This document shows, piece by piece, positions 12,482 to 42,301 of a stretch of DNA of 64,000 bases (position 1 is the first letter of the stretch; every line of letters begins with the position of its first letter). The DNA is from Candidatus Latescibacterota bacterium. Lineage in GTDB: Bacteria; Latescibacterota; UBA2968; UBA8231. The position numbers and the translations under genes are program-made. A model generated the notes under the pieces. That model ran no database searches, was not told where the DNA came from, and saw nothing but the letters and a program-made list of their open reading frames with translations. The stretch spans positions 6,400,001-6,464,000 of the forward strand of contig OZ244561.1 in assembly GCA_965217585.1 (NCBI GenBank). Direction: 5' to 3'.

Positions 12482-12509
12482 ATGTCTTATAAGGATTTTT
12501 ATGTCAACC
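12482..12509 (+). repeat. dif-like 11-6-11 site, copy 1 (closest to canonical dif)
   Basis: ATGTCTTATAA-GGATTT-TTATGTCAACC; compare E. coli GGTGCGCATAA-TGTATA-TTATGTTAAAT and B. subtilis ACTTCCTAGAA-TATATA-TTATGTAAACT; begins right after the asnS stop and overlaps the leuS ATG. Confidence 0.65.
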
Positions 12510-15407
12510 GAAACAAAAAAAGGCCAATACAACTTCCAAACCATCGAAACCAAATGGCGATCCTGTTGGGAACAGGAGAAGACCTATCAAACGCTGGGAC
12601 CGGGGGATCCCGGTTTCGATGGCAGCAAACCCAAGTGCTACATCCTCGATATGTTTCCCTATCCAAGCGGCGCGGGGTTGCACATCGGCCATCCCAAAGG
12701 GTATATCGCCAGCGACATCTACAGCCGCTACAAAAGGATGCAGGGATTTAACGTCCTGCATCCGATGGGGTTCGACAGTTTCGGGTTACCGGCCGAGCAA
12801 TACGCTATCGAACACAACATTCATCCAGCGACCGTTACCGAGCAGAATATCGATGCAATGCGCGGCCAATTGCAGTTTCTCGGGCTGTCGTTTGACTGGG
12901 CCCGCGAAGTGGTCACGTCGCGGGCGTCGTACTACCGCTGGACCCAGTGGATTTTTGTCCAGCTATTCGATAGCTATTTCGACGCAGACGATATCTGGGA
13001 AGACAGCAATGGACGCCAAATAAAGGGGCGGGCCAAGTCCATCGCCGATTTAGAGGCCCAATTTGCTGCTGGCAGGGCGTTGTCGGCAGCAGATCGCCAA
13101 AGTCTTGGCACCGACGCGGCCTGGTCCGCACTAACCGCGGCTGAGCGGCAAGCTGTGCTGAACAACTACCGGCTGGCGTACCAGCAAGAAGCCGTCGTCA
13201 ACTGGTGCCCTGGCTTGGGTACTGTGTTGGCCAACGAGGAGGTGACTAGCGAAGGCCGCAGCGAGCGGGGCGATTTCCCTGTGTATCGCAAACCGTTGCG
13301 GCAGTGGACGATGCGCATAACAGCCTATGCCGAGCGGCTCTTAGAGGATTTGGACTTCGAGCTGGAGGACCGCAATGGTGAGCCTTTCCGGCTCGATTGG
13401 CCAGAACCCATCAAGCGGATGCAGCGCAACTGGATCGGCCGCAGCGAAGGGGCCGAAGTGTGCTTCGATGTTCTCAATCCGCAAAGCGACGCGGTCGCCG
13501 AGCAGTTACCCGTGTTCACGACCCGGCCCGACACGCTTTTTGGGGCGACCTTTATGGCCATTGCCCCTCAGCATCCGCTGGTGGATTCCGCCAAGGAATC
13601 CTATTTGGTCCCTAGTGATTGGCCCGACGGGACGCCTGAGCAGTGGAAGGGGAGAGGGGGTTCTATCCGGGAAGCCGTAGAACATTACGTAGTTGGGGCT
13701 GCTCTCTCCACTGCGGATGAGACCAAGGAGAAAACGGGCATCTTTTCCGGCATCTACGCCCGTAATCCAGTCAATGGACAGAAAATTCCAATTTTCGTCG
13801 CCGATTACGTCAGCATGGACTACGGCGCGGGAGCCATTATGTCCGTGCCGGCCCATGACGAGCGCGATTTCGCCTTCGCCACGGCTTATAACTTGGATAT
13901 TGTGCGGGTGGTTGATGGAGGCGAAGGGGAGTCCACAGGATGGTATGCGGGGGAGGGGACCGCGATCAATTCGCCTTCAGTACTGAAGGCGGACAACGCG
14001 CCGGCCACCGGCGATAATCCATACGCCATCACTGGGTTGGCAACGGCCGCGGCCAAAGCCCAGATCGTCGCTGCCCTCGCTGCCCAAGGACGAGGCCAAG
14101 CTGCGGTAAACTACAAACTGCGCGACTGGACCTTCGCTCGGCAGCGCTATTGGGGAGAACCTTTTCCACTGGCTACGCATCCCGATGGATATTCCATCGA
14201 GGTCCCGCCTCCGGTGGAGCTGCCGGATCTAGAGGATTTCAGGCCAGAGACCTCCGACGATCCCACCCAACCCGTTTCGCCGCCACTGCACCGGGCCGGA
14301 GCGGAGTGGACAACGGTGGAAATTAACGGGGTGGCCTGCCAGCGCGAGCTCAACGTCATGCCCCAATGGGCTGGTTCTTGCTGGTACTATCTCCGCTTTA
14401 TCGATCCGCACAACGAAGAAGCCTTCTGCGACCCGGCCAAGGAAGGCTACTTCATGCCTGTTGATCTCTACATTGGCGGCGCGGAACACGCGGTGTTGCA
14501 CTTGCTCTACGCTCGGTTTTGGCACAAGGCCCTCTACGACCTGGACCACGTATCCACACCCGAGCCGTTTAAGAAGCTGTTCAACCAAGGCATGATGACC
14601 GCCGATGCCTTTCAGGACGATCGCGGCGTGTATATCGACATCCGCGAGGTCGAGTTCCGCGACGGGGAGCCTGTTGAGATGGGGACGGGAAAGATGCTGC
14701 GCCGGTCCTCCGGCAAGATGGGCAAACGCTACAAAAACGGATTGCCGCCCGAAGAAGTCGGCGAGGAATTTGGCGTGGATACTCTGCGGCTGTACGAAAT
14801 GTACATGGGGCCGCTCGAAGCGAGTGCGCCGTGGAGCATGGAAGGCATTCGCGGGATGCAGCGCTTCTTGCAGCGCGTTTGGCGCAACTTTGTCGATTCA
14901 GATCGACTCGTAAAAATAGGGGAGCGCGCTGCGTTGACGACGGATCTGGAACGCAAGCTGCACCAAACCATCCAAAAGGTAACCGATGACATAGAGGGGC
15001 TGCGGTTTAATACGGCCATTGCCGCCTTGATCGAGCTAAACAATCTGTTGGTGTCCTTAGAGGAAGTGCCGCAGGCCGTCGCCAAACCCTTCTTGATCCT
15101 GCTAGCACCCTTTGCTCCGCATATTGCCGAGGAGCTATGGGAAATGGCGGATTGGGGGACGGGAGACCTCAGTCACCAAAGCTGGCCGAAGTGGGATGTA
15201 GCTAAGGCCGCCGAGGACATGATCGTAGTGCCCATTCAGGTCAATGGCAAAATGCGCGGCCAAGTCGAAGTACCGGTCCGTACTGGAGAAGACAAGATAA
15301 AGTCCTTGGTGCTCGACATGGAGAGCATCCAGAAATACGTGGCCGATGAGACAGCGATAAAGCGATTTATCTGGGTGCCGAATAAGATCGTCAATATTGT
15401 GGTGTAG
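12501..15407 (+). CDS. leuS: Leucine--tRNA ligase
   Basis: MFPYPSGAGLHIGH, FTTRPDT editing domain, GGAEHAVLHLLYARFWHK, KMGKR (KMSKS variant). Confidence 0.97.
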   Translation: MSTETKKGQYNFQTIETKWRSCWEQEKTYQTLGPGDPGFDGSKPKCYILDMFPYPSGAGLHIGHPKGYIASDIYSRYKRMQGFNVLHPMGFDSFGLPAEQYAIEHNIHPATVTEQNIDAMRGQLQFLGLSFDWAREVVTSRASYYRWTQWIFVQLFDSYFDADDIWEDSNGRQIKGRAKSIADLEAQFAAGRALSAADRQSLGTDAAWSALTAAERQAVLNNYRLAYQQEAVVNWCPGLGTVLANEEVTSEGRSERGDFPVYRKPLRQWTMRITAYAERLLEDLDFELEDRNGEPFRLDWPEPIKRMQRNWIGRSEGAEVCFDVLNPQSDAVAEQLPVFTTRPDTLFGATFMAIAPQHPLVDSAKESYLVPSDWPDGTPEQWKGRGGSIREAVEHYVVGAALSTADETKEKTGIFSGIYARNPVNGQKIPIFVADYVSMDYGAGAIMSVPAHDERDFAFATAYNLDIVRVVDGGEGESTGWYAGEGTAINSPSVLKADNAPATGDNPYAITGLATAAAKAQIVAALAAQGRGQAAVNYKLRDWTFARQRYWGEPFPLATHPDGYSIEVPPPVELPDLEDFRPETSDDPTQPVSPPLHRAGAEWTTVEINGVACQRELNVMPQWAGSCWYYLRFIDPHNEEAFCDPAKEGYFMPVDLYIGGAEHAVLHLLYARFWHKALYDLDHVSTPEPFKKLFNQGMMTADAFQDDRGVYIDIREVEFRDGEPVEMGTGKMLRRSSGKMGKRYKNGLPPEEVGEEFGVDTLRLYEMYMGPLEASAPWSMEGIRGMQRFLQRVWRNFVDSDRLVKIGERAALTTDLERKLHQTIQKVTDDIEGLRFNTAIAALIELNNLLVSLEEVPQAVAKPFLILLAPFAPHIAEELWEMADWGTGDLSHQSWPKWDVAKAAEDMIVVPIQVNGKMRGQVEVPVRTGEDKIKSLVLDMESIQKYVADETAIKRFIWVPNKIVNIVV

Positions 15408-15454
15408 GAGTGCTAGGCTGCAATGGGACTTGATCGTTTCAATAGGAGAAAAAA

Positions 15455-15811
15455 ATGACTTGCTACTATACAAACAGATATAACGAACAATTCATACAAA
15501 TTGAACATTACCGACGATATCCTCAAATGATGCCGTTTGTCGGAAAAGAATATGAGGCAGGCGGCATACTTTTATTGTTAGAAAGCCACTATCTACCCGA
15601 GAGAAGTCGGGTTCATCTTGACGCAGATCATTGGTATAGCGGAAATTCGGATTCACTTAGCGAGGAAGAAAAGATATGGATACATACTAGAAATATAACC
15701 AACGATAAATTGCATTGGGAAGATGGAAGAGGATCCATAGGAAAAATAAATTTAGCATTGATAGAAGCGTTAGGGCAAGAAAGGGAAGAGAGGGATAATA
15801 TGTTTCAATAA
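15455..15811 (+). CDS. AT-rich hypothetical protein, probably a truncated foreign gene (UDG-like N-terminal motif)
   Basis: AGGAG RBS; visibly much lower GC than flanks; MPFVGKEY...LLLLESHY motif; stop abuts dif-like copy 2. Confidence 0.55.
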   Translation: MTCYYTNRYNEQFIQIEHYRRYPQMMPFVGKEYEAGGILLLLESHYLPERSRVHLDADHWYSGNSDSLSEEEKIWIHTRNITNDKLHWEDGRGSIGKINLALIEALGQEREERDNMFQ

Positions 15812-15839
15812 ATGTCTTATAATTTTTAATATGTAAATA
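15812..15839 (+). repeat. dif-like 11-6-11 site, copy 2
   Basis: ATGTCTTATAA-TTTTTA-ATATGTAAATA; both arms identical to copy 3; 15 bp from the recombinase stop. Confidence 0.7.
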
Positions 15840-15854
15840 AAAAAACAAAAATCC

Positions 15855-16829
15855 TCAACTACCAATCCCAATATAATCAGACGCATTATCGAGCAGCCTC
15901 TCGCGGTTTTCGTAGTAACGCATCGTCGTCTTTAGATCCTTGTGGCGCAAATGGGCTTGCACTTGCTGAGGTTTAGCTCCGCCTTCAATCGCCAGAGTGC
16001 AGCACGTGTGGCGGAACATGTGCGCGGTGACGTTTTGCGGAAGGCCGGCGCGCAGGGCGTACTTCTTGACGATGTGATTTACCGATTGATCGGTCAGCGG
16101 CTGGCCGCGCGAATGGTTGCGCGACAGGCTGATGAAGACCTTGCCGGTCGTCGGCCAGCCCGCCACCTGTAGTTGTTGTTTGTATAGTTCGAGATGATGT
16201 AGGACGACGCTTTGTAGTTTGATCTCCTGCGCCACGCCCGATTTAGTCTGGGGCAGGTGCAGGATGTAAAAGACGCCCTCCAAGGATATATCCTCCCAGG
16301 CGACGCCCGCCACTTCGGAGCGGCGCAGCCCGCCGAAAGTGAGCAACTGAAAGATGGCCGCATCCCGCGTGCGGACCAAGTCGTCTTTTTCCTCGGCAAT
16401 AGCTTGCTGCATCTTGCGCAGCACCTCATTGGAAAGCGCTTTGCCGGCCAGTGTTTCGTCCACCTTGTAGCCACGCACCAAGGTGGAGTCGGCGGGATTC
16501 TTCTCGATGTGGCCTAGGGCCACCAACATCTTGAACAACGATTTCAGGCTGGACAATTTTCTGTTGATGCTGCTGCGCTTGTAGCCTTCGCCGGCGAGCT
16601 GATTTCTAAAGGCGACCACATGCTCAAAGGTGATTGACTGTAAGACGGCGAGGGAGACGTCATTTAGCTCTAGGCCGATGGATAAAAAGAAATGCTGGAG
16701 ATCGGCGTAATAAGCGCGCCGGGTGCGCTCGCTAAGCTGGCCGCTGAGAAATTGTTCCAAGGGATCGTCCGACACCAACGCTGGTGTTGGCGTCAGCCTG
16801 CGGACGACCGGATTGAGTGTTTCGCTCAT
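15855..16829 (-). CDS. Tyrosine recombinase (Xer/integrase family)
   Basis: SAM-like N-domain (SERTRRAYYADL, SSINRKLSSLKSLF); intact catalytic residues GLRRSE, TKSG, HMFRH, LRHKDLKTTMRY. Confidence 0.93.
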   Translation of the reverse strand: MSETLNPVVRRLTPTPALVSDDPLEQFLSGQLSERTRRAYYADLQHFFLSIGLELNDVSLAVLQSITFEHVVAFRNQLAGEGYKRSSINRKLSSLKSLFKMLVALGHIEKNPADSTLVRGYKVDETLAGKALSNEVLRKMQQAIAEEKDDLVRTRDAAIFQLLTFGGLRRSEVAGVAWEDISLEGVFYILHLPQTKSGVAQEIKLQSVVLHHLELYKQQLQVAGWPTTGKVFISLSRNHSRGQPLTDQSVNHIVKKYALRAGLPQNVTAHMFRHTCCTLAIEGGAKPQQVQAHLRHKDLKTTMRYYENRERLLDNASDYIGIGS

Positions 16830-16926
16830 AAATACTCGCTGGGGCTTAATTGGTATCTAATGTCCCAAATATAGCGAACATCGCGACATTTTGCCGCTGC
16901 ATATCACATGGGATTCGCCTAGTTTT

Positions 16927-16960
16927 TATACTATTGATAATGCCTGTTATCGTTAGTATA
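16927..16960. repeat. Symmetric tyrosine-recombinase core-like site upstream of the recombinase
   Basis: TATACTATTGATAA-TGCCTG-TTATCGTTAGTATA: 14-bp inverted arms (12/14 match) with a 6-bp spacer. Confidence 0.65.
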
Positions 16961-16979
16961 ATGACCAAAATTGAAGAAA

Positions 16980-18743
16980 CTAGAATTTTCGCAATAAACG
17001 CTCCATATCGCTCAATTTCATCCTCGCCATAATCGGCTTGTCCGTCGGGCTTATGTGCGGCGAGTCAACCTTTAGCAATTCGTTGATTAAGTGCGCCATT
17101 TCCTCGGCGTTCAGTTTCTGCCCCTTCTTGATGCTCGCTTTACGCACGTAAGCCAAGACGAGTGCTTCGCGCCAAGATCGGCCCGAATGCTGGCCATCCC
17201 GCACGTCGTTCAATAGCTGATAAAAAACATCGCCTTCGCCCCAGCGATCCAATTCGGCGGGAACAGCTTCCACTAGCACCGTCCGCGCGCCAAAATCCCG
17301 CACCACAAAGCCCAGCTTGGCAATGTCAGCCCGCACTTGGTTGAAGACCGCAAAATCCGCTGCGCCCATCTCTAGCTGTATGGGAAAGAGCAATTGCTGG
17401 CTTGTCTCGCCAAGGCGAGGTGAAGCGCTGGCCACGCCGTCCATTTGCGCCATAGCCCGATCGTAGTTGATGCGCTCGTGCGCGGCCTGCTGATCGACGA
17501 AGAGCAAGCCATCGGCTACCTCGACGAGGATGTACTGGTTGTGGACCTGCCACATCGCGGCGTCTTCGGCTAAGGCGACTTTGGCCGCGGCTGGTGCGAC
17601 GAAGGCCATCGCGAGTTGGTCATCTGCATCATGGGTTGTTGTCTCGGCCGCTCCGGGCGCAGGCAAGCTGTGCAACACCGGCGACGTCGGTTCGCCCACC
17701 CGGACCGAGACCGGCGCGACGCCCGCAGCACTGCTGTCATAGACAAAGGATTGCGTATCGGGCAGCCTGAGCTTCTGCCGGACGCTGTTCTCTATGGCCG
17801 CGATGACCTGCCCTTCGTTGGCCAAGCGAATCTCCCGTTTTGTCGGATGGACGTTGACGTCGATTTTCTTGGGATCCATATCGATCCAGAGCATGAATAC
17901 CGGATGATGCCCATCGGGCAGCAGTCCCCCAAAGCAGCGCTGTACAGCACTGGCCATGAGCCGCGAATAAATGGGCCGCCCCTGAACGATGAGGTACTGC
18001 TTGCCTTTGCTCCGACCGCAGTGTTCGGGGCCAGCCAAGACCCCTTCGATTTTGAGGCCCTCCTCCTCGTGAGCGAGATCCAACAGTTCGGCGGCTGGAA
18101 TGCCCAACAACTCGGCCGCCCGTTCCCGACGAGATGCCGGCGTGTAGCTCAATACCTTGCGATCTTGGTGCTCTAGTTCAAAGCTGAGGGCCGGGTAGCT
18201 GGCGGCTAAATGGATGATGGTCTGTGCCACATGGCGGGCTTCCGTATCGACGGGCCGCAGGAACTTACGCCGCGCCGGCGTATTAAAAAACAGGTTCCTC
18301 ACCACGATGGTCGTGCCGCGTGCTCGACCCATACTGTGCATCTCTCGCTCTATCCCCCCTTCCACGACCAAGCGCGTCCCGGCTTCGTCTTGCTGCGCGC
18401 GCGATTCTATCGCCAAGTGAGCTACCGCCCCAATACTGGCTAGGGCCTCGCCGCGAAACCCCAGCGTCTGAATGTGAAATAGGTCGGCCACCGAGGCCAT
18501 CTTGCTCGTGGCATGACGGCGCACGCACAAAGCAATATCCTCTCTGTTCATGCCCGAGCCATCGTCGGTCACGACAATCGACTGCTTGCCGCCGGCCTTG
18601 ATTTCCACGCGGATCTTAGTGGCACCCGCATCGATCGAGTTTTCGACCAATTCCTTCACGACCGAGGCCGGCCGTTCCACTACCTCACCGGCGGCGATTT
18701 TTCCAATGAGACTTTCGTCGAGAACGCGAATGGTACTCGCCAT
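16980..18743 (-). CDS. mutL: DNA mismatch repair protein MutL
   Basis: IAAGEVVERPASVVKELVENSIDA, TLGFRGEALASI, DVNVHPTK, DQQAAHERI. Confidence 0.97.
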   Translation of the reverse strand: MASTIRVLDESLIGKIAAGEVVERPASVVKELVENSIDAGATKIRVEIKAGGKQSIVVTDDGSGMNREDIALCVRRHATSKMASVADLFHIQTLGFRGEALASIGAVAHLAIESRAQQDEAGTRLVVEGGIEREMHSMGRARGTTIVVRNLFFNTPARRKFLRPVDTEARHVAQTIIHLAASYPALSFELEHQDRKVLSYTPASRRERAAELLGIPAAELLDLAHEEEGLKIEGVLAGPEHCGRSKGKQYLIVQGRPIYSRLMASAVQRCFGGLLPDGHHPVFMLWIDMDPKKIDVNVHPTKREIRLANEGQVIAAIENSVRQKLRLPDTQSFVYDSSAAGVAPVSVRVGEPTSPVLHSLPAPGAAETTTHDADDQLAMAFVAPAAAKVALAEDAAMWQVHNQYILVEVADGLLFVDQQAAHERINYDRAMAQMDGVASASPRLGETSQQLLFPIQLEMGAADFAVFNQVRADIAKLGFVVRDFGARTVLVEAVPAELDRWGEGDVFYQLLNDVRDGQHSGRSWREALVLAYVRKASIKKGQKLNAEEMAHLINELLKVDSPHISPTDKPIMARMKLSDMERLLRKF

Positions 18744-18749
18744 ATATCC

Positions 18750-19274
18750 TCACAACTCGGCCCAGAGCCGCTCGGCCTGCTGCCGGAATTCGGCTTGGGT
18801 AATTTTGCCTTGTTTGAGCGCGGTTTCGAGGTCGCGCAAGCGGCGGCGTGGCCCCCCTCCCCCTTTAAGATCCAGCCGTATTTGGGACCAGATGTGCCAC
18901 CCCCCCACGCCGAGCAACAAGGCGATAAAGACCGCACCACCCCACCACGAATCATCTTGCTCTTGGCGCACCACTCCCCCCTTTTGTCGCCAATCTTCGG
19001 CCACGGCTGGGTCGGGCTCGGCTAGTGCGATCCGCTTGGCCATCGTCGTGCCGTTGGTCCCTTGGACGCGCACGGCCCTTTTGAGCTGCCAAGTAAATCC
19101 CCGGGGTTGCACGATTAAATGCTCGATGAGATCGGCCTCTCTTATCTGATCGAACTGCTCCTTGGTAACCGGCACAGCCATAGGACTGAGCAAGTTGAAC
19201 AGCAACACGATCGCCAACAAGAAAGATGCTAACGAAAGAGCGAAGTACGTGGGTGGTGTGGATGGTTTGTCCAT
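18750..19274 (-). CDS. Two-TM membrane protein: FtsH-N-terminus-like region plus C-terminal SHOCT-like helix
   Basis: TM1, VTKEQF loop, SWW-TM2, GGGG, then LRDLETALKQGKITQAEF. Confidence 0.6.
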   Translation of the reverse strand: MDKPSTPPTYFALSLASFLLAIVLLFNLLSPMAVPVTKEQFDQIREADLIEHLIVQPRGFTWQLKRAVRVQGTNGTTMAKRIALAEPDPAVAEDWRQKGGVVRQEQDDSWWGGAVFIALLLGVGGWHIWSQIRLDLKGGGGPRRRLRDLETALKQGKITQAEFRQQAERLWAEL

Positions 19275-19291
19275 ATGTTTCTTTTATTTTT

Positions 19292-19319
19292 TATTTACAT
19301 ATTATATTTTATAAGACAT
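19292..19319 (-). repeat. dif-like 11-6-11 site, copy 3
   Basis: Minus strand ATGTCTTATAA-AATATA-ATATGTAAATA. Confidence 0.7.
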
Positions 19320-19320
19320 T

Positions 19321-20121
19321 TTATTTTGATTGTCTGCGGTTCAAGACCGCGTCTTGTCTTGCCGACGTACGCATCCATTCCAAGAGACGATAGCTTTCGG
19401 CCACCTCTCCCAAACCCAACAGCGGCTGGGCACGCCCTTGGATACAGGCGACGAAATTGCGATAGTACGCCGCCAGATCGTCCGCTTTCCATACCCAAGG
19501 CCAAGACGTATCGACTATTTCGTCCTGTGCATACGAGCGGATCCGCAAAGCCGGGGCCACAGCCGGAAAGTCGAGGAGCGCAATCGAGCCTTCGACGCCA
19601 TTGCGCATCCTCAGCAGGGCGACCGACACGTCCTCCATGCGCCCGTGATGAAAAAAGTTGCGCATCCTGCTGTACAGCACATCTACCGACCCCCAAGTGC
19701 TCAGTAGCAGGTCGCATACGTCCAAGGCCGCTTGATTGCAGATCGTCTCGCGATCAATAGGATCGAATAAAGCCGAATCAAAAGAAAGTTCCAAGGAGTA
19801 ATGCGCTACACCCTGCTGGGCGGCCAGAGCCGTGCAAAAGTGCGTATGTCTCCCTAAGGACAGCGCACACGCATTGGGATGGCTATTTGCAAACGGCTCC
19901 TGTACGGGATGGGTCGCCATAACGTGCAGACCGGCCGCCACGGCCACGCCCATCCAATGCGATTTATCGTCCACGTGTAACAGCACCAGCCCATCTATTT
20001 TTTGTTCCAAGATCGCGGCGCAGTCGGCTTGGTGTACGAGCTGGATATCGCGGCAGTTCCGCAAGGCATCCCGATGGGCGGCCACCTCGCGGGCATGGCC
20101 TGCCACGCCGAGCGTCATCAT
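19321..20121 (-). CDS. Degenerate Gfo/Idh/MocA-family oxidoreductase-like protein
   Basis: AGLHVMATHPV (canonical AGKHVLCEKP), EDVSVALLRMRNGVEGSI, NFVACI; ATGA-coupled to hprK. Confidence 0.6.
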   Translation of the reverse strand: MMTLGVAGHAREVAAHRDALRNCRDIQLVHQADCAAILEQKIDGLVLLHVDDKSHWMGVAVAAGLHVMATHPVQEPFANSHPNACALSLGRHTHFCTALAAQQGVAHYSLELSFDSALFDPIDRETICNQAALDVCDLLLSTWGSVDVLYSRMRNFFHHGRMEDVSVALLRMRNGVEGSIALLDFPAVAPALRIRSYAQDEIVDTSWPWVWKADDLAAYYRNFVACIQGRAQPLLGLGEVAESYRLLEWMRTSARQDAVLNRRQSK

Positions 20122-22707: not shown

Positions 22708-23631
22708 TCAGTTGAATAGTGCGCTAATGGAGGTTTCTTCGTGGATAGCGCGTATGGCGCTGGCAAAGAGAGAAGCCACAGAGCACACCTGCATCATGGG
22801 TGCGCGGGCGTCCGCCGGCAAGGGAATCGTATCGGTGATGGCGAGGGCTTGGAGGCTGGATTGATCCAGCCGCGCTATCGTCTCCTTGGTTAAGGTGCCG
22901 TGGACGCAACCAGCGTAGATTTTGCGTGCCCCGCGCTCCTTGACGGCGGCGGCGCCCTTGAGGATGGAAGTGCCGGTAATGATCGCGTCGTCGAAGAATA
23001 CGACATCGCGGTCGGCTACATCGCCAATAACCCTGTTTTCCCCGGCGCCCTGATCAACCACGACGAGGGGCAACCCCAACCGCTGGGCATAGGTCTCGGT
23101 GACCTTGGCGCGGCTGATGTCTGGCGCGGCCGCGACCAAGTTGTCTCGGTCGAGGTCGGCGTAATAAGCGCATATCGCCGGGACGCCACTCAGTTGGTCC
23201 ACTAGGATCCGGCTAAAGCCCATAGTCTGCGGGCTGTGTAAGGTCATGGTGAGAATGCGGTCCGCCCCGGCTTCGGCGATCAGATCTGCCACCAAGCGGC
23301 CGGCCACGGAAATCCTCGGCTCGTCCTTGCTGTCGGCCAGAGCATACGGATAGTACGGCAAGACGGCGGTGATGCGGCCAGCCGAGGCGTATTTTAGGGC
23401 GTCGAGGGCTATGAGTAGCTCCATCAAGTAGTCGCTAACGGGCGGACACGAGGTTTGAATAAAGAACACATCGCGGCCGCGCACGTTTTCACAGATCTTT
23501 ACCTTTATATTTTCGTTGCTAAAGTCGATAAACTCGATGCGCCCTGGCTCAATGGCCAGCGACTGGTAAATGCCCTTAGCCAATGTGGGATTGCTCCGCC
23601 CGGCGAAAACCTTGAGATCCGTACTACCCAT
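22708..23631 (-). CDS. Ribose-phosphate pyrophosphokinase paralogue with degenerate active site
   Basis: PRPS fold (ENVRGRDVF, RITAVLPYYPY) but lacks YARQD Arg and the DKRR loop. Confidence 0.85.
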   Translation of the reverse strand: MGSTDLKVFAGRSNPTLAKGIYQSLAIEPGRIEFIDFSNENIKVKICENVRGRDVFFIQTSCPPVSDYLMELLIALDALKYASAGRITAVLPYYPYALADSKDEPRISVAGRLVADLIAEAGADRILTMTLHSPQTMGFSRILVDQLSGVPAICAYYADLDRDNLVAAAPDISRAKVTETYAQRLGLPLVVVDQGAGENRVIGDVADRDVVFFDDAIITGTSILKGAAAVKERGARKIYAGCVHGTLTKETIARLDQSSLQALAITDTIPLPADARAPMMQVCSVASLFASAIRAIHEETSISALFN

Positions 23632-23642
23632 CAATAGGCCCC

Positions 23643-24347: not shown

Positions 24348-24860
24348 TCAATAGACGATAGCGCTTTCCAATTTGTACCCGTGCAAGAGGTCGCGGCCCG
24401 ACAGAAAGCTCAACTCAGCCAAAACGCTGATGCCTGAGATAACAGCCCCTAGTTTTTCGAGCACTTGACACGTCGCCGCCAAGGTCCCACCGGTGGCCAA
24501 AACATCATCCACGACCAATACCTTTTGCCCCGGTGCGATGGCATCGGTGTGTATTTCTAAGGCCGTCTCACCGTATTCGAGCGCGAAGTCGCGGCGCAGC
24601 GTGGCCGCCGGTAGCTTACCCGGCTTGCGCACCGGCACAAAACCGCATCCCAATTCGAGTGCTATCGGCGTCGCGAACACAAATCCGCGGGCCTCTATAC
24701 CGGCTACTAAGTCCACTTCGGCGTCCGCAAAGGGTTCGAGCATGATTTGGACCGCGGCCGATAAACCAGCGGGGTCTTTGAGCAGCGGCGTGATGTCTTT
24801 GTATAAGACACCGTCTTGCGGGAAATTGGGGATTTCGCGGATTAGGTCTTTTAGGTTCAT
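24348..24860 (-). CDS. apt: Adenine phosphoribosyltransferase
   Basis: GIEARGF, RKPGKLP, LEYG, VVDDVLATGGT. Confidence 0.96.
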   Translation of the reverse strand: MNLKDLIREIPNFPQDGVLYKDITPLLKDPAGLSAAVQIMLEPFADAEVDLVAGIEARGFVFATPIALELGCGFVPVRKPGKLPAATLRRDFALEYGETALEIHTDAIAPGQKVLVVDDVLATGGTLAATCQVLEKLGAVISGISVLAELSFLSGRDLLHGYKLESAIVY

Positions 24861-24886
24861 TTTACATATTATATTTTATGAGTCTT
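24859..24886 (-). repeat. dif-like 11-6-11 site, copy 4
   Basis: Minus strand AAGACTCATAA-AATATA-ATATGTAAAAT; same spacer as copy 3, 19 contiguous bp identical; overlaps apt ATG. Confidence 0.6.
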
Positions 24887-25049: not shown

Positions 25050-26000
25050 CTAGCCCTCCCACTCAATCAAGCGGCTCACTGATTCGCCGTGGTGAATGGC
25101 TTTGATCGCATCCCCCAACAACCGGGCGACGCTCAACACGGCGATTTTGCGCCTCGGCTTGCCCGTGGGTAAGGGAATGGTATTCGTGGTGGCGAACGCC
25201 TCCACCGAGGAAGCATCGATCCTCTCTAGGGCGTGCCCGGAAAAAACGCCGTGCGTACAGCCGGCCAGTATTCGGCGCGCGCCCTTTTCTTTGAGGACCC
25301 GTATCGACTCCATCATGGACCCCCCTGTCAGCACCTCTTCGTCGAAGAGCAAGGCGTCGCGGCCTTCGACCTCGCCGATCATGTTTTTGATTTCGGCCTT
25401 TTCGTCGTCCGCGTGGCGGCGCTTGTCCATAATGGCCAGCGGCAAGCCGAGCCGGCGCGCATACGCGCTGGCTTCATCGGCACCCCCCACGTCGGGCGAC
25501 ACCACCACGGCGTTGCTGAGATCTTTCATCCGCATAAAATTGCACAGCAGGCTCGTAGCCCACAGTTGGTCAACCGGAATGCGTGAGAACGCCACGATTT
25601 GCGGGCTGTGCAAGGTAATGGTCAAGATCCGGTCGGCCCCGGCCGCTTGGAGTAAGTCGGCGACGAGGCGGGCGCTAATAGAAATGCGGGGTTCGTCCTT
25701 TTTGTCGGCGCGCACATAAGGATAATAGGGTAGTACGGCCGTAATCCGGCGCGACGACGCGTACTTAAGTGCGTCGATTAGCAGCAGGAGTTCAACAAAA
25801 TGATGGTTGACCGGGGATGCTGACGTCTGGATGACGAAGACGTCGTCTTCGCGCACGTTTTCCTCAATTTTAACCTTTATATTGTCGTTGGGCTCGCGGA
25901 CGATCTGGCGGCGAGTGGGCACAATGGCCAAGTAATCACATATTTCCTGGGCCAGTTCTGGATTGCTCGAACCCGACAATATTTTCAGGTGATTTTTCAT
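25050..26000 (-). CDS. prs: Ribose-phosphate pyrophosphokinase
   Basis: YVRADKK, SPDVGG, MDKRR, FDEEVLTGGS, THGVFS. Confidence 0.92.
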   Translation of the reverse strand: MKNHLKILSGSSNPELAQEICDYLAIVPTRRQIVREPNDNIKVKIEENVREDDVFVIQTSASPVNHHFVELLLLIDALKYASSRRITAVLPYYPYVRADKKDEPRISISARLVADLLQAAGADRILTITLHSPQIVAFSRIPVDQLWATSLLCNFMRMKDLSNAVVVSPDVGGADEASAYARRLGLPLAIMDKRRHADDEKAEIKNMIGEVEGRDALLFDEEVLTGGSMMESIRVLKEKGARRILAGCTHGVFSGHALERIDASSVEAFATTNTIPLPTGKPRRKIAVLSVARLLGDAIKAIHHGESVSRLIEWEG

Positions 26001-34202: not shown

Positions 34203-34280
34203 TGGTCGGGGTGGCCGGATTTGAACCGGCGACCCCCTGCTCCCGAAGCAGGTGCGCTAGCCGGGCTGCGCTACACCCCG
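34203..34280 (-). tRNA. tRNA-Pro(CGG)
   Basis: Cloverleaf CGGGGTG...; anticodon arm CCTGC-TTCGGGA-GCAGG; GTTCAAATC T-loop; encoded CCA. Confidence 0.96.
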
Positions 34281-34326
34281 ACATGGACAAGCAAAAGCTG
34301 CGATCTCTATACTACTATTATAAAAA

Positions 34327-34404
34327 TGGTCGGGGTGACTGGATTTGAACCAGCGACCTCTTCCACCCCAAGGAAGCGCGCTAGCCGGGCTGCGCCACAC
34401 CCCG
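34327..34404 (-). tRNA. tRNA-Pro(GGG)
   Basis: Anticodon arm CTTCC-TTGGGGT-GGAAG; encoded CCA. Confidence 0.96.
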
Positions 34405-34437
34405 ACTCAATTATCCGACCATACTCTGGCGACAAAA

Positions 34438-34514
34438 TGGTGAGCTAACCAGGATTCGAACCTGGGACCTCCGGTTCCGGAGACCGGCGCTCTATCCAGC
34501 TGAGCTATTAGCCC
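34438..34514 (-). tRNA. tRNA-Arg(CCG)
   Basis: GGGCTAA acceptor; anticodon arm CCGGT-CTCCGGA-ACCGG; encoded CCA. Confidence 0.96.
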
Positions 34515-35809: not shown

Positions 35810-35815
35810 AGTCGA

Positions 35816-37036: not shown

Positions 37037-37522
37037 ATGAACAAGGCCGCGCGGCATGTACTGCGGAGATTAGGCACTGATACTAGCTTGGACCACGAGC
37101 GCCAACAGCGCCTTTCACGCGAGGTCCAAGAAGAGCAGCAAAAACGCCGGGAACAAGGGGGCGATCAAGATACCAGCTTCGAGGCCATTCCCGAGGAAAT
37201 GCTGACTGAGTCGGAAAAGCGCCACGAGAAGTATCGCCGCCAACAGGCCATGGCCGGGCGGTTTACCCCCGCTGCCGAGCGCCTGCCCATTATGACGGCT
37301 GAAGAGCGGGCCGCCCACAACAAGGATCGTCCCAAGTGGCAGCAGACTTCGTTTGAGGGACCGATTGAAAAGCTAATCGAGAAATACCAAGACCTAGAGG
37401 AAGTACAACGCCACCTGACCTTGGGTCAATCCATGAAGTACGAGTTTACCAGCGACGGCCGCGTCCTCGACAAAGAAGGTAATCTGATCTTCGATGGAGA
37501 AAAGGTCGTCGGCAAACTCTAG
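37037..37522 (+). CDS. Hypothetical charged protein
   Basis: GGGAGG RBS, promoter-like upstream, 161 aa. Confidence 0.7.
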   Translation: MNKAARHVLRRLGTDTSLDHERQQRLSREVQEEQQKRREQGGDQDTSFEAIPEEMLTESEKRHEKYRRQQAMAGRFTPAAERLPIMTAEERAAHNKDRPKWQQTSFEGPIEKLIEKYQDLEEVQRHLTLGQSMKYEFTSDGRVLDKEGNLIFDGEKVVGKL

Positions 37523-37582
37523 GTTGGCTGGCTTGCTCCCCTCTTAAGACGCACAAGTGGCTGCTCGCCACAATCCGACTTG

Positions 37583-38644
37583 ATGCCTCGTCTTTATCGA
37601 TTGCTCATCGGGCTTGGCCTGTTGAGCGTCTGTGGCTGCAATCTCAATTACTATTGGCATCTGGCCCGCGGCCAAAGTCGCGTGGTGTACAAGCGCATAC
37701 CCGTCCAAAACCTCCTCGCCCGACCCGACCTAGCCGAGCAAACTCGGACGCAACTAGAGCTGATCCAAACCATTCTTCGCTACGCCGAAAGCGTGGGTCT
37801 GAAAACAGACGACCATTACACGGCCTTCTACGATACGGGCGGCGACCCGATCAGTTGGAATGTCAGCGCTTGTCCGCCCGACCGCTTCTCGCCCTATACT
37901 TGGGATTTTCCGTTCGTCGGCGAGGTCCCCTATAAAGGTTTCTTTCGCCGCGATTTGGCCGACGAGCAGCGCGATGCCCTCGCCGCCGCAGGGTATGACG
38001 CAATCGTTCGCCCGGTCAGTGCCTACAGCACCTTGGGCATTTTCTCCGATCCAATCCTCAGCTCAATGCTCAACTACGCGCCCGACCAACTAGCCGATTT
38101 GATCCTCCACGAACTGACTCACGCCCTCGTCTATGCCCCAAGACAGACCGATTACAACGAGAGCTTGGCGACCTTCGTCGGCCGCCAAGGGTCCCTGCTC
38201 TTCTTGGCGCAGCACTTCGGCATCGATACCCCGCTCTTGCAACAGGCTGAGGCGCACCGAGCGGACGCGGCCCTCTTTCGGCACTTCATGGCCGAGACCG
38301 TCGCAGCACTCGACAGCCTCTACTCGCTGGGCCTGCCTCGCAGCGTTGTTCTGCGCGACCGACATATCGTTTTTGCTCAGCGCCAGCGCGATTTCACCCT
38401 CATCAGAACGCAGTTTACCCACAACCAGTACGATGGGTTCCTCCAATGGGAACTAAACAATGCGCGGCTCCTATCTTATCGTCGCTACAACTCCAATCTA
38501 GCGCTTTTCTTTGATGTTTATCGCACCCGCGGCGAGGACTTGGCCAGTGCCTTGGAGATTTTTGCGGCCTGCGCTGAAGACGGCAACCCTTGGCAGTGCC
38601 TGCGCGTTACAATAGAGCCTGAGGAGGAGAGGAACCCGTCATAG
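37583..38644 (+). CDS. Putative zinc aminopeptidase lipoprotein (DUF2265-type)
   Basis: Lipobox-like VCGC; FPFVGEVPYKGFF, AYSTLG, HELTH, NESLATF. Confidence 0.85.
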   Translation: MPRLYRLLIGLGLLSVCGCNLNYYWHLARGQSRVVYKRIPVQNLLARPDLAEQTRTQLELIQTILRYAESVGLKTDDHYTAFYDTGGDPISWNVSACPPDRFSPYTWDFPFVGEVPYKGFFRRDLADEQRDALAAAGYDAIVRPVSAYSTLGIFSDPILSSMLNYAPDQLADLILHELTHALVYAPRQTDYNESLATFVGRQGSLLFLAQHFGIDTPLLQQAEAHRADAALFRHFMAETVAALDSLYSLGLPRSVVLRDRHIVFAQRQRDFTLIRTQFTHNQYDGFLQWELNNARLLSYRRYNSNLALFFDVYRTRGEDLASALEIFAACAEDGNPWQCLRVTIEPEEERNPS

Positions 38645-38673
38645 CCTCCTCTTAGCCGATTTCTTGGGTCCGA

Positions 38674-39543
38674 ATGGTAGCTAAACACCTCTTGACAATG
38701 CTCTTGCTGGCGGCCCTCGCCTTTGGTCCGCTTGGGTGCGCCGCTAGGTTGCAGTCCGCGTTAGTGGGGTCGTTGATAGAAGACGTTAGTGCGGCCACAG
38801 CCCGTCACGACGATTTGGATTTGGTCGCCTCGGGCGTGCCTACTTTCCTACTCTTATTAGAAGGACTGCTGGTGGCCAATCCCCAAGACCCGCAATTGCT
38901 CTTAAGTGCTGCTGAGACCTATACTTCCTATGCTACTTTGGTCGAAGTCGACGATCCCCAACGAGCCAAGCACCTGTACCATCGGGCCAAGGTGTACGGT
39001 CTCAAAACCCTCTCTCTGCGCCTTAGTCAACCAGGCTTACTCCGAGCACCTTATGCTGAATTTATCCGCGTCACCGATGACCTAGAGGCCTCAGATCTGC
39101 CGGTCGTGTTCTGGGCCGCTTCGAGTTGGGGTGCTTGGATTAGTGCCAATATTGAATCCATGGCGGCACTGGCTGAATTGCCCAAAGTCATTAAACTCAT
39201 GCAGTGGATCGTGGCCCAAGACGAGACCTTTCAATACGGGAGTTCCCATGTCTTCTTGGGGTCCTATTACGCAGCCCTACCGCCGATGTTGGGCGGCAAC
39301 CCGGAAAAGGCCGCCGAGCACTTCGACCGAGCGGTGGCTATCAGCAAAGGACAGGTGCTCATGGTTTACGTAGCCAAGGCCAAATTCTATGCTCGGAACA
39401 CTTTTGACCGGGTGCTATACGAATCCCTGCTCAACCAAGCCCTAACCAGCCCAGCGGACGCCGTACCGGAGCTTACCTTGCAAAACATCGCCGCCCAAAA
39501 ACAGGCGCAGATCCTGCTAGATCAAGCCGATGACTTCTTTTAA
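38674..39543 (+). CDS. TRAP transporter TatT component (TPR lipoprotein)
   Basis: LGC lipobox; PPMLGGNPEKAAEHFDRA pattern; upstream of dctPQM. Confidence 0.88.
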   Translation: MVAKHLLTMLLLAALAFGPLGCAARLQSALVGSLIEDVSAATARHDDLDLVASGVPTFLLLLEGLLVANPQDPQLLLSAAETYTSYATLVEVDDPQRAKHLYHRAKVYGLKTLSLRLSQPGLLRAPYAEFIRVTDDLEASDLPVVFWAASSWGAWISANIESMAALAELPKVIKLMQWIVAQDETFQYGSSHVFLGSYYAALPPMLGGNPEKAAEHFDRAVAISKGQVLMVYVAKAKFYARNTFDRVLYESLLNQALTSPADAVPELTLQNIAAQKQAQILLDQADDFF

Positions 39544-40534
39544 GGGACTTTTTGCGGTCGTCGCCGCTTTCATAGCCAGCTCTGTCGCGGCCCAACCCAA
39601 TCACCTCCTCAAAATTGCGACCCTCGCCCCGGAGGGCAGTGGCTGGGCCAAGGTCCTCCGCACCATTGACGCGGACGTGCGGCGAGAGACGGGCGGCAAT
39701 GTGGGATTCAAAATCTATCCTGGCGGCGTCCAAGGCGACGAGAAAGTCATCTTGCGCAAGATGCGCATCGGCCAGCTCCACGGCGGTAATTTTGGCGGCC
39801 TAGGCATCAGCCAGACCTTTCCCGATGTCCTCGCGCTGGAAATGCCCTTCCTCTTCGACAGCTATGCCGAAATAGATTACGTGCTCGAGAAAATGGATGC
39901 CTTTTACCGGCAAGGATACGAGGAACGAGGCTATGTCTTTCTCGGTTGGGTCGACATTGGCTTTGTCCACATCCTCTCGCAGCAACCCGTAGCTACCGTC
40001 GCGGACATGCGCACTCAAAAGGTATGGCAGCTACCCGATGAACCGATTACCTCCGTGCTTTTCCGTATAGCCGGCGTTACCTCAGTTCCCCTCAACATCC
40101 CGGATGTCCTCCTCGGGTTGCAGACCAACCTAATTGATGTAGTGTACGCCTCGCCGTCCGTGACCATCATTCTCCAATGGTTTACCCGCGCAAAATATGT
40201 CACCCAACTTCCCATCAACTACACCCTAGGCGCTCTCTTGCTCGACAAGCGAATTTTCGCCAAAATTCCCGCCGCCGATCGCGAGCGCATCCACCGCATA
40301 GCGCAGCAGCACCTAGCCGCCTTGGGACAGCGCAACCGCCGAGAAAACGACGAGGCCATGGCTGTGTTGCAGGCCAATGGCCTGTCGCTGGTCGAGGTTG
40401 GCCCTAATGATGTAGAGACCTTCAAGGGCCTCGTCGCCAGCGCCGAAGCCGAGCTCGTGGGCCAGGCCTTTTCTAGTGCAGCTCACGAACAAATAGCGCG
40501 ACACCTCCAGGAATTTCGCCAGGCTTCCCCTTGA
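39530..40534 (+). CDS. dctP: TRAP substrate-binding protein DctP (TatP)
   Basis: KIATLAPEGSGW, IYPGGVQGDE, KMRIGQLHG, LQTNLID. Confidence 0.92.
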   Translation: MTSFKGLFAVVAAFIASSVAAQPNHLLKIATLAPEGSGWAKVLRTIDADVRRETGGNVGFKIYPGGVQGDEKVILRKMRIGQLHGGNFGGLGISQTFPDVLALEMPFLFDSYAEIDYVLEKMDAFYRQGYEERGYVFLGWVDIGFVHILSQQPVATVADMRTQKVWQLPDEPITSVLFRIAGVTSVPLNIPDVLLGLQTNLIDVVYASPSVTIILQWFTRAKYVTQLPINYTLGALLLDKRIFAKIPAADRERIHRIAQQHLAALGQRNRRENDEAMAVLQANGLSLVEVGPNDVETFKGLVASAEAELVGQAFSSAAHEQIARHLQEFRQASP

Positions 40535-41007
40535 GCGGTCAGCACTTCCTCCACCGACTCGAGACCGGCTTCCTCGTCCTTTTGGTAACCTGCTTGCTGG
40601 TGCTGACCTGCGGGCAGATTCTCATGCGCAACCTGTTCTCCATCACCTTCTTGGGCACCGAAAGTCTCGTGCGGCACCTCGTGTTGTGGATTGGGCTAGC
40701 CGGCGCTTTGGTCGCCACCCGGCTCGACAAACACATCCGCATTGACGCTGCGTTGCGCCTGCTACCCGCCGGGGTGCGAGCTATTGTCTTGAGCTGTGCA
40801 GACTTTTTTGCCGCTGCCCTTTGCGCCTATTTAGCGTATATCGCCGGATGCTTCGTGCTCGACGAACGCGCATTCGGCACGATGGCTTTCTTGGCCGTCC
40901 CCGCTTGGATCGCCCAACTGTGCTTTCCCCTCGTCTTTGGCTTGATGGGGTTGCGCTTCCTCTTGCAGGGCGGGCGACGCCTCCGCGCCCCCGCAGATCG
41001 CTCGTGA
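40531..41007 (+). CDS. dctQ: TRAP small permease DctQ
   Basis: Four TMs; LVLWIGLAGA...KHIRID. Confidence 0.9.
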   Translation: MSGQHFLHRLETGFLVLLVTCLLVLTCGQILMRNLFSITFLGTESLVRHLVLWIGLAGALVATRLDKHIRIDAALRLLPAGVRAIVLSCADFFAAALCAYLAYIAGCFVLDERAFGTMAFLAVPAWIAQLCFPLVFGLMGLRFLLQGGRRLRAPADRS

Positions 41008-42257
41008 GCAGCCTCCTAGCCACCCTAGCCGCCCTAGCCGGGGTCCCGCTCTTTGTGGTCATCAGCGCGATGGCCCTTTTGCACTTCTCCTTCGCCGAGA
41101 TCGATTTAACCGTCGTTTTCATCGAGATGTATCGGATAGCCGAAACACCGACCTTAACGGCTATTCCGCTCTTCGCTCTCACGGGTTTCATCCTCGCCGA
41201 AAGCGGCGCACCGACTCGTCTGGTGCGCTTCTCCCAAGCCTTGCTCGGCTGGCTGCCAGGGGGTCTGGCCATTATGGCCATTATCGTCTGCGCCCTCTTT
41301 ACTGCTTTGACCGGGGCTTCGGGAATGACGATTGTCGCGCTCGGCGGGCTGCTCTTGCCCGCTCTACGACAACAGCGCCTGCCCGATTCGTTTTCCCTCG
41401 GGCTGATTACCACCTCAGGCAGCTTAGGGTTGCTCTTTCCGCCGAGCCTGCCGCTAATCATCTACGGCATCGTATCCGAGACGCCGGTAGACCAGCTTTT
41501 TATCGCGGGCATCGCCCCCGGCTTGCTCTTGGTCGGTGCGCTGTCCTGCTACAGCTTGTTCCAAGGCCGGCGCTGTGCCGCGCCCGAGCGCTCCACCGGG
41601 TGGCGCGAATTGCCGCAAGCCTTTGTCGCTTGTAGTTGGGAGCTTCTTTTACCGGTGGTGATCTTCGGGGGGATCTACGGGGGGATAATCGCCGTCAGCG
41701 AGGCTGCGGCTTTGAGCGCCCTATACGCTCTGGTAGTGGTGGTGCTGATCCGTCGCGAGGTCTCCATCGGGCAACTGCCGAAGATCATCTGCGAAAGCAT
41801 GGTGCTAGTCGGCGGCATTTTCGTCGTCTTGGCCGCGGCCATGGCCTATACCAACTACCTCGTCGATGCGGAAGTCCCAACGCGCTTACTCGCCTATATA
41901 GAGACTCATATCAGCAGCCGCCTGCTGTTCTTGATTCTCCTCAATGTGTTTCTGCTAGCGGTTGGCTGTATGATCGACATGTTCTCTGCCCTCCTCATCG
42001 TCGTGCCTCTGATCCTGCCCATCGCCGCAGCATACGATGTGCACCCCATTCACCTCGGGATCATTTTTTTGACCAACTTGGAAATCGGCTACTCGACGCC
42101 GCCGGTTGGTCTCAACCTATTTATTGCCAGCATTCGCTTTGAACAGCCCGTACATCGGCTCTACCGAGTCTCTTTGCCTTTTCTGTTGATTCTGTTGGCT
42201 TGTTTAGTTGTGATTACCTACTGGGCTGATTTGAGTTTGTTTCTCGTTGAGTCTTAA
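41004..42257 (+). CDS. dctM: TRAP large permease DctM
   Basis: AIPLF, TGASG, GLLFPPS, TPPVGLNLF; GTGA overlap with dctQ. Confidence 0.93.
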   Translation: MSSLLATLAALAGVPLFVVISAMALLHFSFAEIDLTVVFIEMYRIAETPTLTAIPLFALTGFILAESGAPTRLVRFSQALLGWLPGGLAIMAIIVCALFTALTGASGMTIVALGGLLLPALRQQRLPDSFSLGLITTSGSLGLLFPPSLPLIIYGIVSETPVDQLFIAGIAPGLLLVGALSCYSLFQGRRCAAPERSTGWRELPQAFVACSWELLLPVVIFGGIYGGIIAVSEAAALSALYALVVVVLIRREVSIGQLPKIICESMVLVGGIFVVLAAAMAYTNYLVDAEVPTRLLAYIETHISSRLLFLILLNVFLLAVGCMIDMFSALLIVVPLILPIAAAYDVHPIHLGIIFLTNLEIGYSTPPVGLNLFIASIRFEQPVHRLYRVSLPFLLILLACLVVITYWADLSLFLVES

Positions 42258-42273
42258 GTTTTTTTGCTGGATA

Positions 42274-42301
42274 TATTTACATATTAATTTTTATATGGCA
42301 T
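42274..42301 (-). repeat. dif-like 11-6-11 site, copy 5
   Basis: Minus strand ATGCCATATAA-AAATTA-ATATGTAAATA; includes the mcrC stop codon. Confidence 0.65.

Follow-up and report, generated by a model that had tools for sequence, protein, structure and literature searches.

We found that the replication terminus of an uncultured Latescibacterota bacterium carries six 28-bp sites of the dif type, arranged as two opposed groups of three, and that the two innermost sites are the breakpoints of a 3.5-kb block which occurs in both orientations among related genomes. The block encodes a tyrosine recombinase (here called rec), MutL and a 174-aa putative membrane protein (o174). Five of the sites lie in the analysed window, by which we mean the whole stretch of 64,000 nucleotides at C1:6,400,001-6,464,000 of a genome assembled as a single contig of 7,323,734 bp, and the sixth lies just outside its left edge. 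To judge by their architecture (11-6-11) and position, these are genuine dif-type Xer sites marking the replication terminus. A chromosome is expected to carry one dif; here there are six such sites, and the two central ones appear to be active. To our knowledge this arrangement has not been described before for the dimer-resolution region of a chromosome, and we regard it as a variant of the Xer/dif system. The features concerned are as follows, in window coordinates unless stated otherwise (ORF, open reading frame).

C1:6,397,966-6,397,993, + strand, outer site c0, located 2,035 bp before the first base of the window (locus L005): TAGTCATATAA-TCTATA-ATATGTCAAAT
12482-12509, + strand, outer site c1, occupying the asnS-type/leuS intergenic space: ATGTCTTATAA-GGATTT-TTATGTCAACC
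15812-15839, + strand, inner site at the recombinase end of the block, 15 nt beyond the 3′ end of rec: ATGTCTTATAA-TTTTTA-ATATGTAAATA
15840-19291, no strand assigned, 3.5-kb invertible block with rec, mutL and o174, enclosed by the inner sites
15855-16829, - strand, rec, tyrosine recombinase of 324 aa with Pfam Phage_integrase and SAM-like N domain
16980-18743, - strand, mutL, with Pfam DNA_mis_repair, MutL_C and HATPase_c_3
18750-19274, - strand, o174, 174-aa ORF and first gene of the block, of no family, with two hydrophobic stretches by reading of the translation
19292-19319, - strand, inner site at the o174 end of the block, read on the - strand: ATGTCTTATAA-AATATA-ATATGTAAATA
24859-24886, - strand, outer site c4, upstream of apt, whose ATG overlaps the end of the right arm: AAGACTCATAA-AATATA-ATATGTAAAAT
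42274-42301, - strand, outer site c5, between a convergent DctM-type transporter gene and mcrC: ATGCCATATAA-AAATTA-ATATGTAAATA

Six dif-like sites at the replication terminus

We searched the window with the core pattern TATAA-N6-WTATGTAAA, allowing up to two mismatches. The search returned exactly five matches against 0.15 expected, a number reached by none of 100 shuffles, and these are the same five 28-mers, in position and strand, that a preceding inspection of the letters (the sequence-only reading) had picked out. In the whole genome, all three exact matches fall in the window, and six of the nine matches with at most one mismatch are clustered at C1:6,397,972-6,442,276, which revealed one more copy, the sixth, on the + strand and 2 kb outside the left end of the window. 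The array of five sites proposed earlier is therefore real, but its full count is six. A position weight matrix, built from the six copies and hence circular for them, scores these copies at 33.1-40.3 bits, the next match in the genome at 26.8 bits (C1:3,752,106) and all others at 21.3 bits or less. The motif is thus clustered and polar at the GC-skew switch and is not a genome-wide transcription-factor site. Moreover, when the region was given to an independent repeat finder, its longest inverted repeat turned out to be the inner pair (40 nt and 88 % complementary, with 3,432 nt in between). The 26.8-bit sequence (C1:3,752,106-3,752,133, + strand, corresponding to L099:5107-5134) has GATAA for TATAA and a GC-containing spacer. 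Its location is a gap of 330 bp that separates divergent ORFs, distant from origin and terminus, and it is probably a chance match.

The cumulative GC skew of the genome has its maximum at the array and its minimum at ~2.65 Mb, which places the array at the terminus. In 5-kb bins the skew changes sign between 6,415,000 and 6,420,000, and the inner sites are located at 6,415,812 and 6,419,292. The six sites read + + + / - - -, and their change of polarity, between the two inner sites, coincides with this sign change; the flip of orientation across the recombinase-mutL block that had been noticed in the letters is hence confirmed. Genes left of the centre are on the + strand and genes right of it on the - strand, so that they converge on it. 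All six copies sit at gene boundaries, as claimed before for five, and two are located between convergent genes. In c0, the TAG is the stop codon of the upstream gene and the ATG is the start of a miaA-like ORF, a situation kept in 10 of 10 relatives examined. In c1, the TAA stop of the upstream gene abuts the site, leuS starts with the ATG of the right arm and the GGA of the spacer stands where a ribosome-binding site would be expected, and in c5 the TAA of the left arm is the mcrC stop. The stretches between the sites hold housekeeping genes (PNPase, an asnS-type synthetase, leuS, HPr kinase, rsgA, two prs genes, apt, and cysteine and methionine enzymes). An McrBC-type restriction system (42291-44893, - strand; McrC and an AAA_5 ATPase) abuts the last and outermost site, c5. 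In the same region, prs paralogues that are ~50 % identical flank c4 (22708-23634 and 25050-26000, both on the - strand), and three tRNA genes stand in tandem at 34206-34514 (- strand), two of them 85 % alike across 80 nt.

The protein components known from XerCD/dif were identified in the genome. XerD is encoded outside the array (346.7 bits, above the equivalog cut-off), as is a XerC-like protein with 313 bits, which is below the equivalog cut-off of 335 and above the subfamily cut-off of 279, and FtsK with its gamma domain is present. The genome also encodes Smc, recognised by a match to the Smc hinge. Searches for Tus (PF05472) and RTP (PF02334) gave no match in the genome, which is 94.6 % complete, and the controls were positive in E. 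coli and B. subtilis, respectively. Regarding skewed octamers resembling KOPS (FtsK orienting polar sequences), the top candidate showed a strand bias of only 72 %.

To follow the array in relatives, we scanned 31 genomes of this Latescibacterota genus with a 23-nt pattern, allowing at most one mismatch; the reversed pattern used as control gave 0-1 matches per genome. Among the matches listed, the sites are clustered in every listed complete genome as a + run followed by a - run, their spacings are alike (about 14.5, 2.9, 3.5, 5.6 and 17.5 kb) and exactly 3+3 sites are present in 11 of the 31 genomes. Each site class keeps the same gene boundary across the genus, which is the conservation in relatives that the sequence-only reading called for. 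The asnS/leuS and prs/apt adjacencies are intact in every genus locus covering them, and no outer site was found as a rearrangement breakpoint in any genus locus examined. In 114 pooled sites, positions 5, 7-11, 19-23 and 25-26 hardly vary, whichever of the five site classes is considered, and the variable parts are the spacer and position 18. Conserved arms and variable spacers, which had been noted for the five copies, hence hold across the genus, and the 28-bp sites with two 11-bp arms, conserved inner halves and a variable 6-bp centre conform to dif.

The outer classes have their own spacer types in the genus, GGATAA-like in c1, CATATA-like in c4, AAATTA-like in c5 and TCNNTA-like in c0. 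In 23 of 23 collected sequences of the genus the c1 site keeps its boundary, with the spacer GGATAA or a near variant. The mean majority frequency in c4 (21 sequences) is 1.00 for the right arm and 0.87 for the left arm; in c5 (11 sequences) it is 0.99 for the right arm, 0.87 for the left arm and 0.76 for the 3′ flank, and the right arm and spacer of c5, which lies between convergent genes, have no coding or translational role. The diversity of spacers shows no clear difference between inner sites (20 distinct among 48) and outer classes (7 of 23, 10 of 21, 4 of 11 and 8 of 11). Two details in the earlier description were only partly borne out. The AATATA spacer shared by the third and fourth copies of the window is present here but is not conserved in relatives, and the difference between ATATGT and TTATGT in the right arm, for which binding without strand exchange had been raised as a possibility, is fixed in each outer class but varies (A or T) among species at the inner sites. 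Four genomes of the genus share a near-match with one mismatch, TCATATAACATCCTTTATATAAA, at positions outside the terminus (G003:C52:251185, G021:C24:177054, G011:C1:1797901 and G022:C1:748762); it is a conserved sequence unrelated to the array.

Repeated inversion of the block between the inner sites

We compared the gene orders of the genus with all loci oriented on rec and found two configurations. Configuration A reads prs-site-apt...o266-site-[o174 mutL rec]-site-leuS-site-asnS, and in configuration B the block is reversed and the flanks are unchanged. Relative to the leuS and o266 flanks, 16 of the 26 genus genomes have A and 10 have B. On a tree of mutL and rec DNA (26 rows), the orientation must have changed at least 8 times, with at least 6 changes forced by well-supported branches, and shuffled labels gave a mean of 8.2. 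Sister genomes only 0.02-0.04 substitutions per site apart carry opposite orientations. Flank-specific sequence ends at the first base of the 28-mer and block-specific sequence starts after its last, so the breakpoints are inside the sites, and this applies to both inner sites. The inner pair has the features of an inversion element, namely inverted repeats, both orientations and breakpoints within the repeats, and we conclude from these comparisons that it recombines, with at least 6-8 independent flips apparent among the 26 genomes. The sequence-only reading had suggested a Xer-driven engine of rearrangements centred on the terminus; the suggestion fits the inner pair but not the outer sites, at which no rearrangement was seen in the genomes examined.

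Variants of the left arm co-vary within genomes (e.g. AAG in both inner sites of four genomes). A position-by-position analysis of the association of inner-site variants with flank or block gave weak signals, with the exchange point between about -2 and +12, and these agree only weakly with an exchange on the side of the left arm. Inverted joints were also recovered from metagenomes, for which we used the Logan contigs (not reads) of four public runs, excluding uncovered stretches and small-share runs (X1-X18). Opposite-strand joints connecting 15853/15857 to 19279/19287 occur in the contigs of two of the four runs, and in run X23 a contig with the parental junction (depth 42.8) and one with the inverted junction (depth 32.6) are present together. 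Whichever way the block is turned, the genes on its flanks converge on it, and o174 stands beside mutL across the genus.

Three further observations concern the block and its borders. In the mutL-rec gap, at 16934-16962 (+ strand, opposite to both genes), there is a near-consensus sigma-70-like promoter match, TTGATA-17-TATAAT (11/12). Between leuS and the inner site we annotated a 118-aa ORF of no family (15455-15811, + strand), which is present in none of 53 related loci, and three other loci (L045, L048 and L073) carry other inserts beside inner sites. The inner sites may thus be insertion hot spots.

A third Xer-type recombinase and its distribution

The sequence-only reading had described rec as a lone tyrosine recombinase. 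This is not the case, as the genome encodes five PF00589 genes, including the canonical XerD and the XerC-like gene mentioned above. The scores of rec are far from those of the known Xer families: 129 bits with the XerC model (cut-off 335), 86 bits with the XerS model (cut-off 267) and a weak match of 29 bits with XerH. Its best relative of solved structure is E. coli XerD (1a0p). Residues R169, K204, H270, R273, H296 and Y305 of rec occupy invariant columns in the alignment with XerC and XerD of the same genome; we take them to be the catalytic R-K-H-R-H-Y set, and on that assignment a catalytically competent recombinase is encoded at the invertible element itself. The alignment and distribution mark rec as a catalytically intact, clade-specific Xer paralogue, the third in this genome.

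A single-copy ortholog of 79-97 % identity was found in 22 of 24 other genus genomes, and the completeness of the two without it is 58 % and 92 %. Other Latescibacterota genera have homologs of 58-68 % identity, in each case with mutL, leuS and asnS nearby, and 16 same-class genomes of other families have only matches of XerC/D level, at most 31 % identical. The family comprises more than 120 clusters at 90 % identity, and its source names are generic only. A site stands just past the 3′ end of rec in 17 of 19 loci of relatives; such adjacency of gene and site is typical of single-recombinase Xer systems, but rec does not replace XerC and XerD and does not belong to the XerS or XerH family. 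Some records that share rec and the synteny (L030, L047, L049, L051, L053 and others) carry depositor titles naming Gemmatimonadetes, Gemmatimonadaceae or Magnetovibrio, and for bins of this clade these labels look doubtful.

In distant genera, a +/- pair of sites brackets the recombinase alone, in 8 of 28 loci with the strict pattern and in 10 of 28 with the relaxed one. There, mutL adjoins the recombinase but outside the pair of sites, whereas in this genus it is inside the block; in locus L050 the recombinase is inverted relative to mutL. Of five whole genomes from distant genera, three have the pair as their only cluster and two have a single site beside the gene. Five of the most distant loci (L059, L065, L066, L067 and L076) match the relaxed pattern, at 1-2 mismatches, with a + site on the downstream side of the recombinase, which may be real or may reflect a near-palindromic right arm. 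In other genera whose recombinase is 63-79 % identical, a site of the same polarity was also found at asnS/leuS (three loci) and before apt (two loci). A sister family lacking the recombinase, represented by five genomes of one genus that are not independent, showed no cluster, and its scattered matches occur at control frequency. Since the pair is found with the recombinase and no cluster is found without it, the extra sites and the extra recombinase seem to go together.

Possible roles of the sites and comparison with known systems

The reading that we favour, with a confidence slightly above even, is that the array consists of dif-type terminus sites with an active, flipping inner pair and with outer sites that bind protein and do not recombine. 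The ancestral unit of the clade would be the gene of the third Xer recombinase bracketed by two inverted dif-like sites, their right arms inward, and in this genus the bracket would have been widened to include mutL and the membrane ORF. The inner pair would be the functional dif region, duplicated in inverted orientation around the recombinase gene, and site-specific recombination between the two sites would flip the 3.5-kb block, frequently enough that its orientation carries no phylogenetic signal. We infer that a site-specific recombinase performs the flip, and both XerCD and rec are candidates for it. As the flanks converge on the block, the block operon is co-directional with the upstream flank either way, so the flip may be near neutral, and it could be a by-product of keeping two active sites.

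The outer sites, with a spacer of their own in each class and with three of them built into stop or start codon contexts, would be conserved protein-binding elements. By analogy with the XDS sites of B. subtilis, to which XerD binds, they probably serve for binding alone. The assignment of proteins to the sites that they would bind or cut, and the function of the outer sites, we infer from the sequences: these sites would hold XerD and/or rec as polar roadblocks or unloaders for machines heading for the terminus. According to excerpts of the respective papers, XerD acts at the dif-like XDS of the B. subtilis terminus to unload Smc-ScpAB (PMC11840125, PMC11894783), and XerCD-dif halts FtsK from both sides, while XerD alone blocks one face only (PMC2800217). 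As complexes of recombinase and site are described there to stop FtsK (PMC2800217; Bonne et al.), a polar role is physically plausible. A more far-reaching version, in which rec, with or without XerD, sits on all six inward-facing sites as a Xer-derived polar trap, so that FtsK, SMC (structural maintenance of chromosomes) complexes or replisomes would enter the last 45 kb and not leave, appears to us rather improbable. If true, it would add to Tus-Ter and RTP-Ter a third counterpart of independent origin, made from a recombinase and its sites, and its residual recombination activity would show itself in the flipping of the central block.

Several observations weigh against the favoured reading. 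Regarding the inner pair, the spacers of the two sites are identical in only 6 of 22 genomes (counted by hand), and as they mostly differ, a classical two-strand Xer exchange would meet heterology. In three of three closely related A/B pairs the spacer had remained with the block, and in one of them a left-arm variant had done so too. This places the exchange at or left of the border between left arm and spacer, and the mapping is weak. The sampled metagenomes contain related strains too, so that their inverted joints do not prove flipping within a population. Two inner sites are not indispensable either, since the recombinase-side inner site has a 7-bp spacer in the closest relative (L026:11005-11033) and is lost in another species (L039:10980-11010). 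Regarding the outer sites, the arms of c1 (0.98 and 0.93) are not better conserved than its coding flanks (0.95 and 0.85). In c0, c1 and c4 the right arm contains or closely precedes the start codon of the downstream gene, so their orientation may follow that gene, and a polarity independent of genes then rests on three sites only. The six-site array is limited to this genus and near relatives, and distant genera have the pair only. Moreover, the comparison of the array with XDS draws on descriptions in later papers that cite the original work.

Part of this evidence would also suit a view in which only the inner pair matters, the outer four sites being relics of old dif duplications or integrations that were co-opted as stop, ribosome-binding and start sequences. 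We consider it unlikely. The codons supplied by c0, c1 and c4, the GGA of the c1 spacer, the unexceptional conservation of the c1 arms, the distant genera that manage with the pair alone and the accessory DNA inserted beside inner sites (the 118-aa ORF and the three loci named above) all agree with it. Relics, however, would hardly keep the same nearly invariant positions in all five classes, or a right arm in c5 conserved well above the 3′ flank where neither coding nor translation calls for it. Sites also stand at asnS/leuS and before apt in other genera, the genes between the sites are housekeeping genes and not cargo, and there is no site remnant between leuS and the inserted 118-aa ORF. 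A trap for forks or FtsK of the Tus-Ter/RTP-Ter kind, with rec or XerD as the barrier, would account for the two opposed groups of three sites straddling the skew switch. The recombinase gene beside the innermost site would fit as well, as tus and rtp adjoin inner Ter sites in known fork traps. The one-sided roadblocks described for recombinase-site complexes in the excerpted text of PMC2800217 point the same way, and with neither Tus nor RTP encoded the role is otherwise unfilled. Most bacteria have no dedicated trap, though, and the absence of these two proteins proves nothing. Considering that the fully conserved catalytic residues point to recombination over mere binding, that distant genera have the pair only and that half of the polarity can be explained by gene direction, we regard such a trap as distinctly improbable; we also know of no tyrosine recombinase that arrests forks.

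The two orientations of the block could in principle come from RecA-dependent recombination at short inverted repeats or from assembly errors, given that the inner arms make up the 40-nt inverted repeat in this genome. We find this very hard to accept, because uninterrupted identity is at most 17 nt here, as the spacers differ (and they differ in many other genomes too), the independent flips occurred among close relatives, the breakpoints are always inside the 28-mer, and both orientations are found in complete-chromosome as well as fragmentary short-read assemblies, judged by accessions and titles. The motif is AT-rich and stands just upstream of start codons at three genes, as an ordinary promoter or transcription-factor operator would, but this idea has next to nothing left in its favour. 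It is refuted by the confinement of the motif to one 44-kb stretch of a 7.3-Mb genome, and we rejected a genome-wide factor or promoter motif, as pattern and matrix together give the six sites and one weak match, the divergent intergenic C1:3,752,106. In addition, convergent genes enclose two of the copies, the stretch 15300-19800 has no more sigma-70-like promoter matches than chance would give (3 against 2.8 expected from shuffles), and Rfam families gave no match apart from three tRNAs. Also rejected was mobile cargo of the pdif type (plasmid dif modules) or of the IMEX type (integrative mobile elements exploiting Xer), owing to the housekeeping genes, the conserved synteny, the + + + / - - - order and the lack of a second site between leuS and the 118-aa ORF.

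Compared with known systems, the array shares with XerCD/dif the 28-bp 11-6-11 format, the conserved inner arm halves, the variable AT-rich spacer, the position at the GC-skew switch and the encoded XerD, XerC-like protein and FtsK gamma domain; it differs in having six sites, not one, with the central two inverted and recombining and a third Xer paralogue between them. Like the XDS of B. subtilis (Karaboja et al. 2021), as portrayed in the excerpts cited above, the four outer sites are dif-like sequences outside dif, among ordinary terminus genes, with no sign of recombination and in a genome encoding Smc. Here, however, both arms are conserved (at least their inner halves), the order is strictly mirror-polar, the sites lie within ~25 kb of the centre and an extra recombinase is present. 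In Lactobacillus delbrueckii ssp. bulgaricus, two inverted putative dif sites are reported at the terminus of the circular chromosome (El Kafsi et al. 2017, PMC5345009); in the available part of the text, the authors call the large dif-carrying repeat unprecedented and expect two sites to complicate dimer resolution. Those sites belong to a 47.5-kb inverted repeat, which the same part describes as a recent duplication in one subspecies, whereas here only the 28-mers are repeated, the arrangement is clade-wide and the intervening segment flips. The sequence-only reading had held multiple dif-like sites among core terminus genes to be without precedent, and going by these excerpts the XDS (PMC11840125, PMC11894783) and L. 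bulgaricus (PMC5345009) came before. The titles and abstracts returned by our literature searches describe neither a flipping terminus block nor a conserved pair of inverted dif sites flanking a Xer gene; the nearest case among them is L. bulgaricus, and those returned on Latescibacteria with Xer or dif contained nothing relevant.

The abstracts on XerS (PMC1914069, PMC2731167) describe a recombinase gene linked to a dif-like site. The linkage in XerS/difSL and XerH/difH is similar to ours, where the site is within tens of bases of the 3′ end of the gene, but those recombinases replace XerCD, and here XerC and XerD are present, and rec scores far below the XerS cut-off and matches XerH only weakly. 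In switches of the fimS/FimBE type, short inverted repeats bound an invertible segment, both orientations occur naturally and the recombinase is encoded at the element. The present block differs in that no ON/OFF logic is evident, as it is read from the upstream flank either way, and in that its repeats are dif-type terminus sites. With Tus-Ter and RTP-Ter it has in common the opposed polar groups of sites flanking the terminus and a protein gene beside the inner site; it departs from them in lacking a Tus or RTP homolog and in having recombination-type sites and a recombinase that is catalytically complete by sequence. The pdif modules of Acinetobacter plasmids and the IMEX elements likewise have several XerC/D-like sites at the borders of gene blocks. 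They carry mobile cargo, with direct repeats left by integration or, for pdif, an alternating orientation, and here neither pattern is found: the sites are chromosomal, they stand among housekeeping genes (leuS, asnS-type, HPr kinase, rsgA, prs and apt) in the order + + + / - - -, and the synteny extends across genera.

A clade of an uncultured phylum thus seems to keep, on either side of an additional Xer recombinase, two inverted dif-type sites that are active, and to tolerate constant flipping between them. In one genus the flipping block carries mutL, and this genus also has four more sites in mirror-polar order. Should those outer sites be XDS-like, XerD-type unloading of SMC would extend far beyond Firmicutes and could be polar, and should they act as a trap, they would represent a new class of terminus barrier. 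The system offers short, portable DNA sites and three recombinase genes, which can be tested for inversion, binding, FtsK stoppage and SMC unloading.

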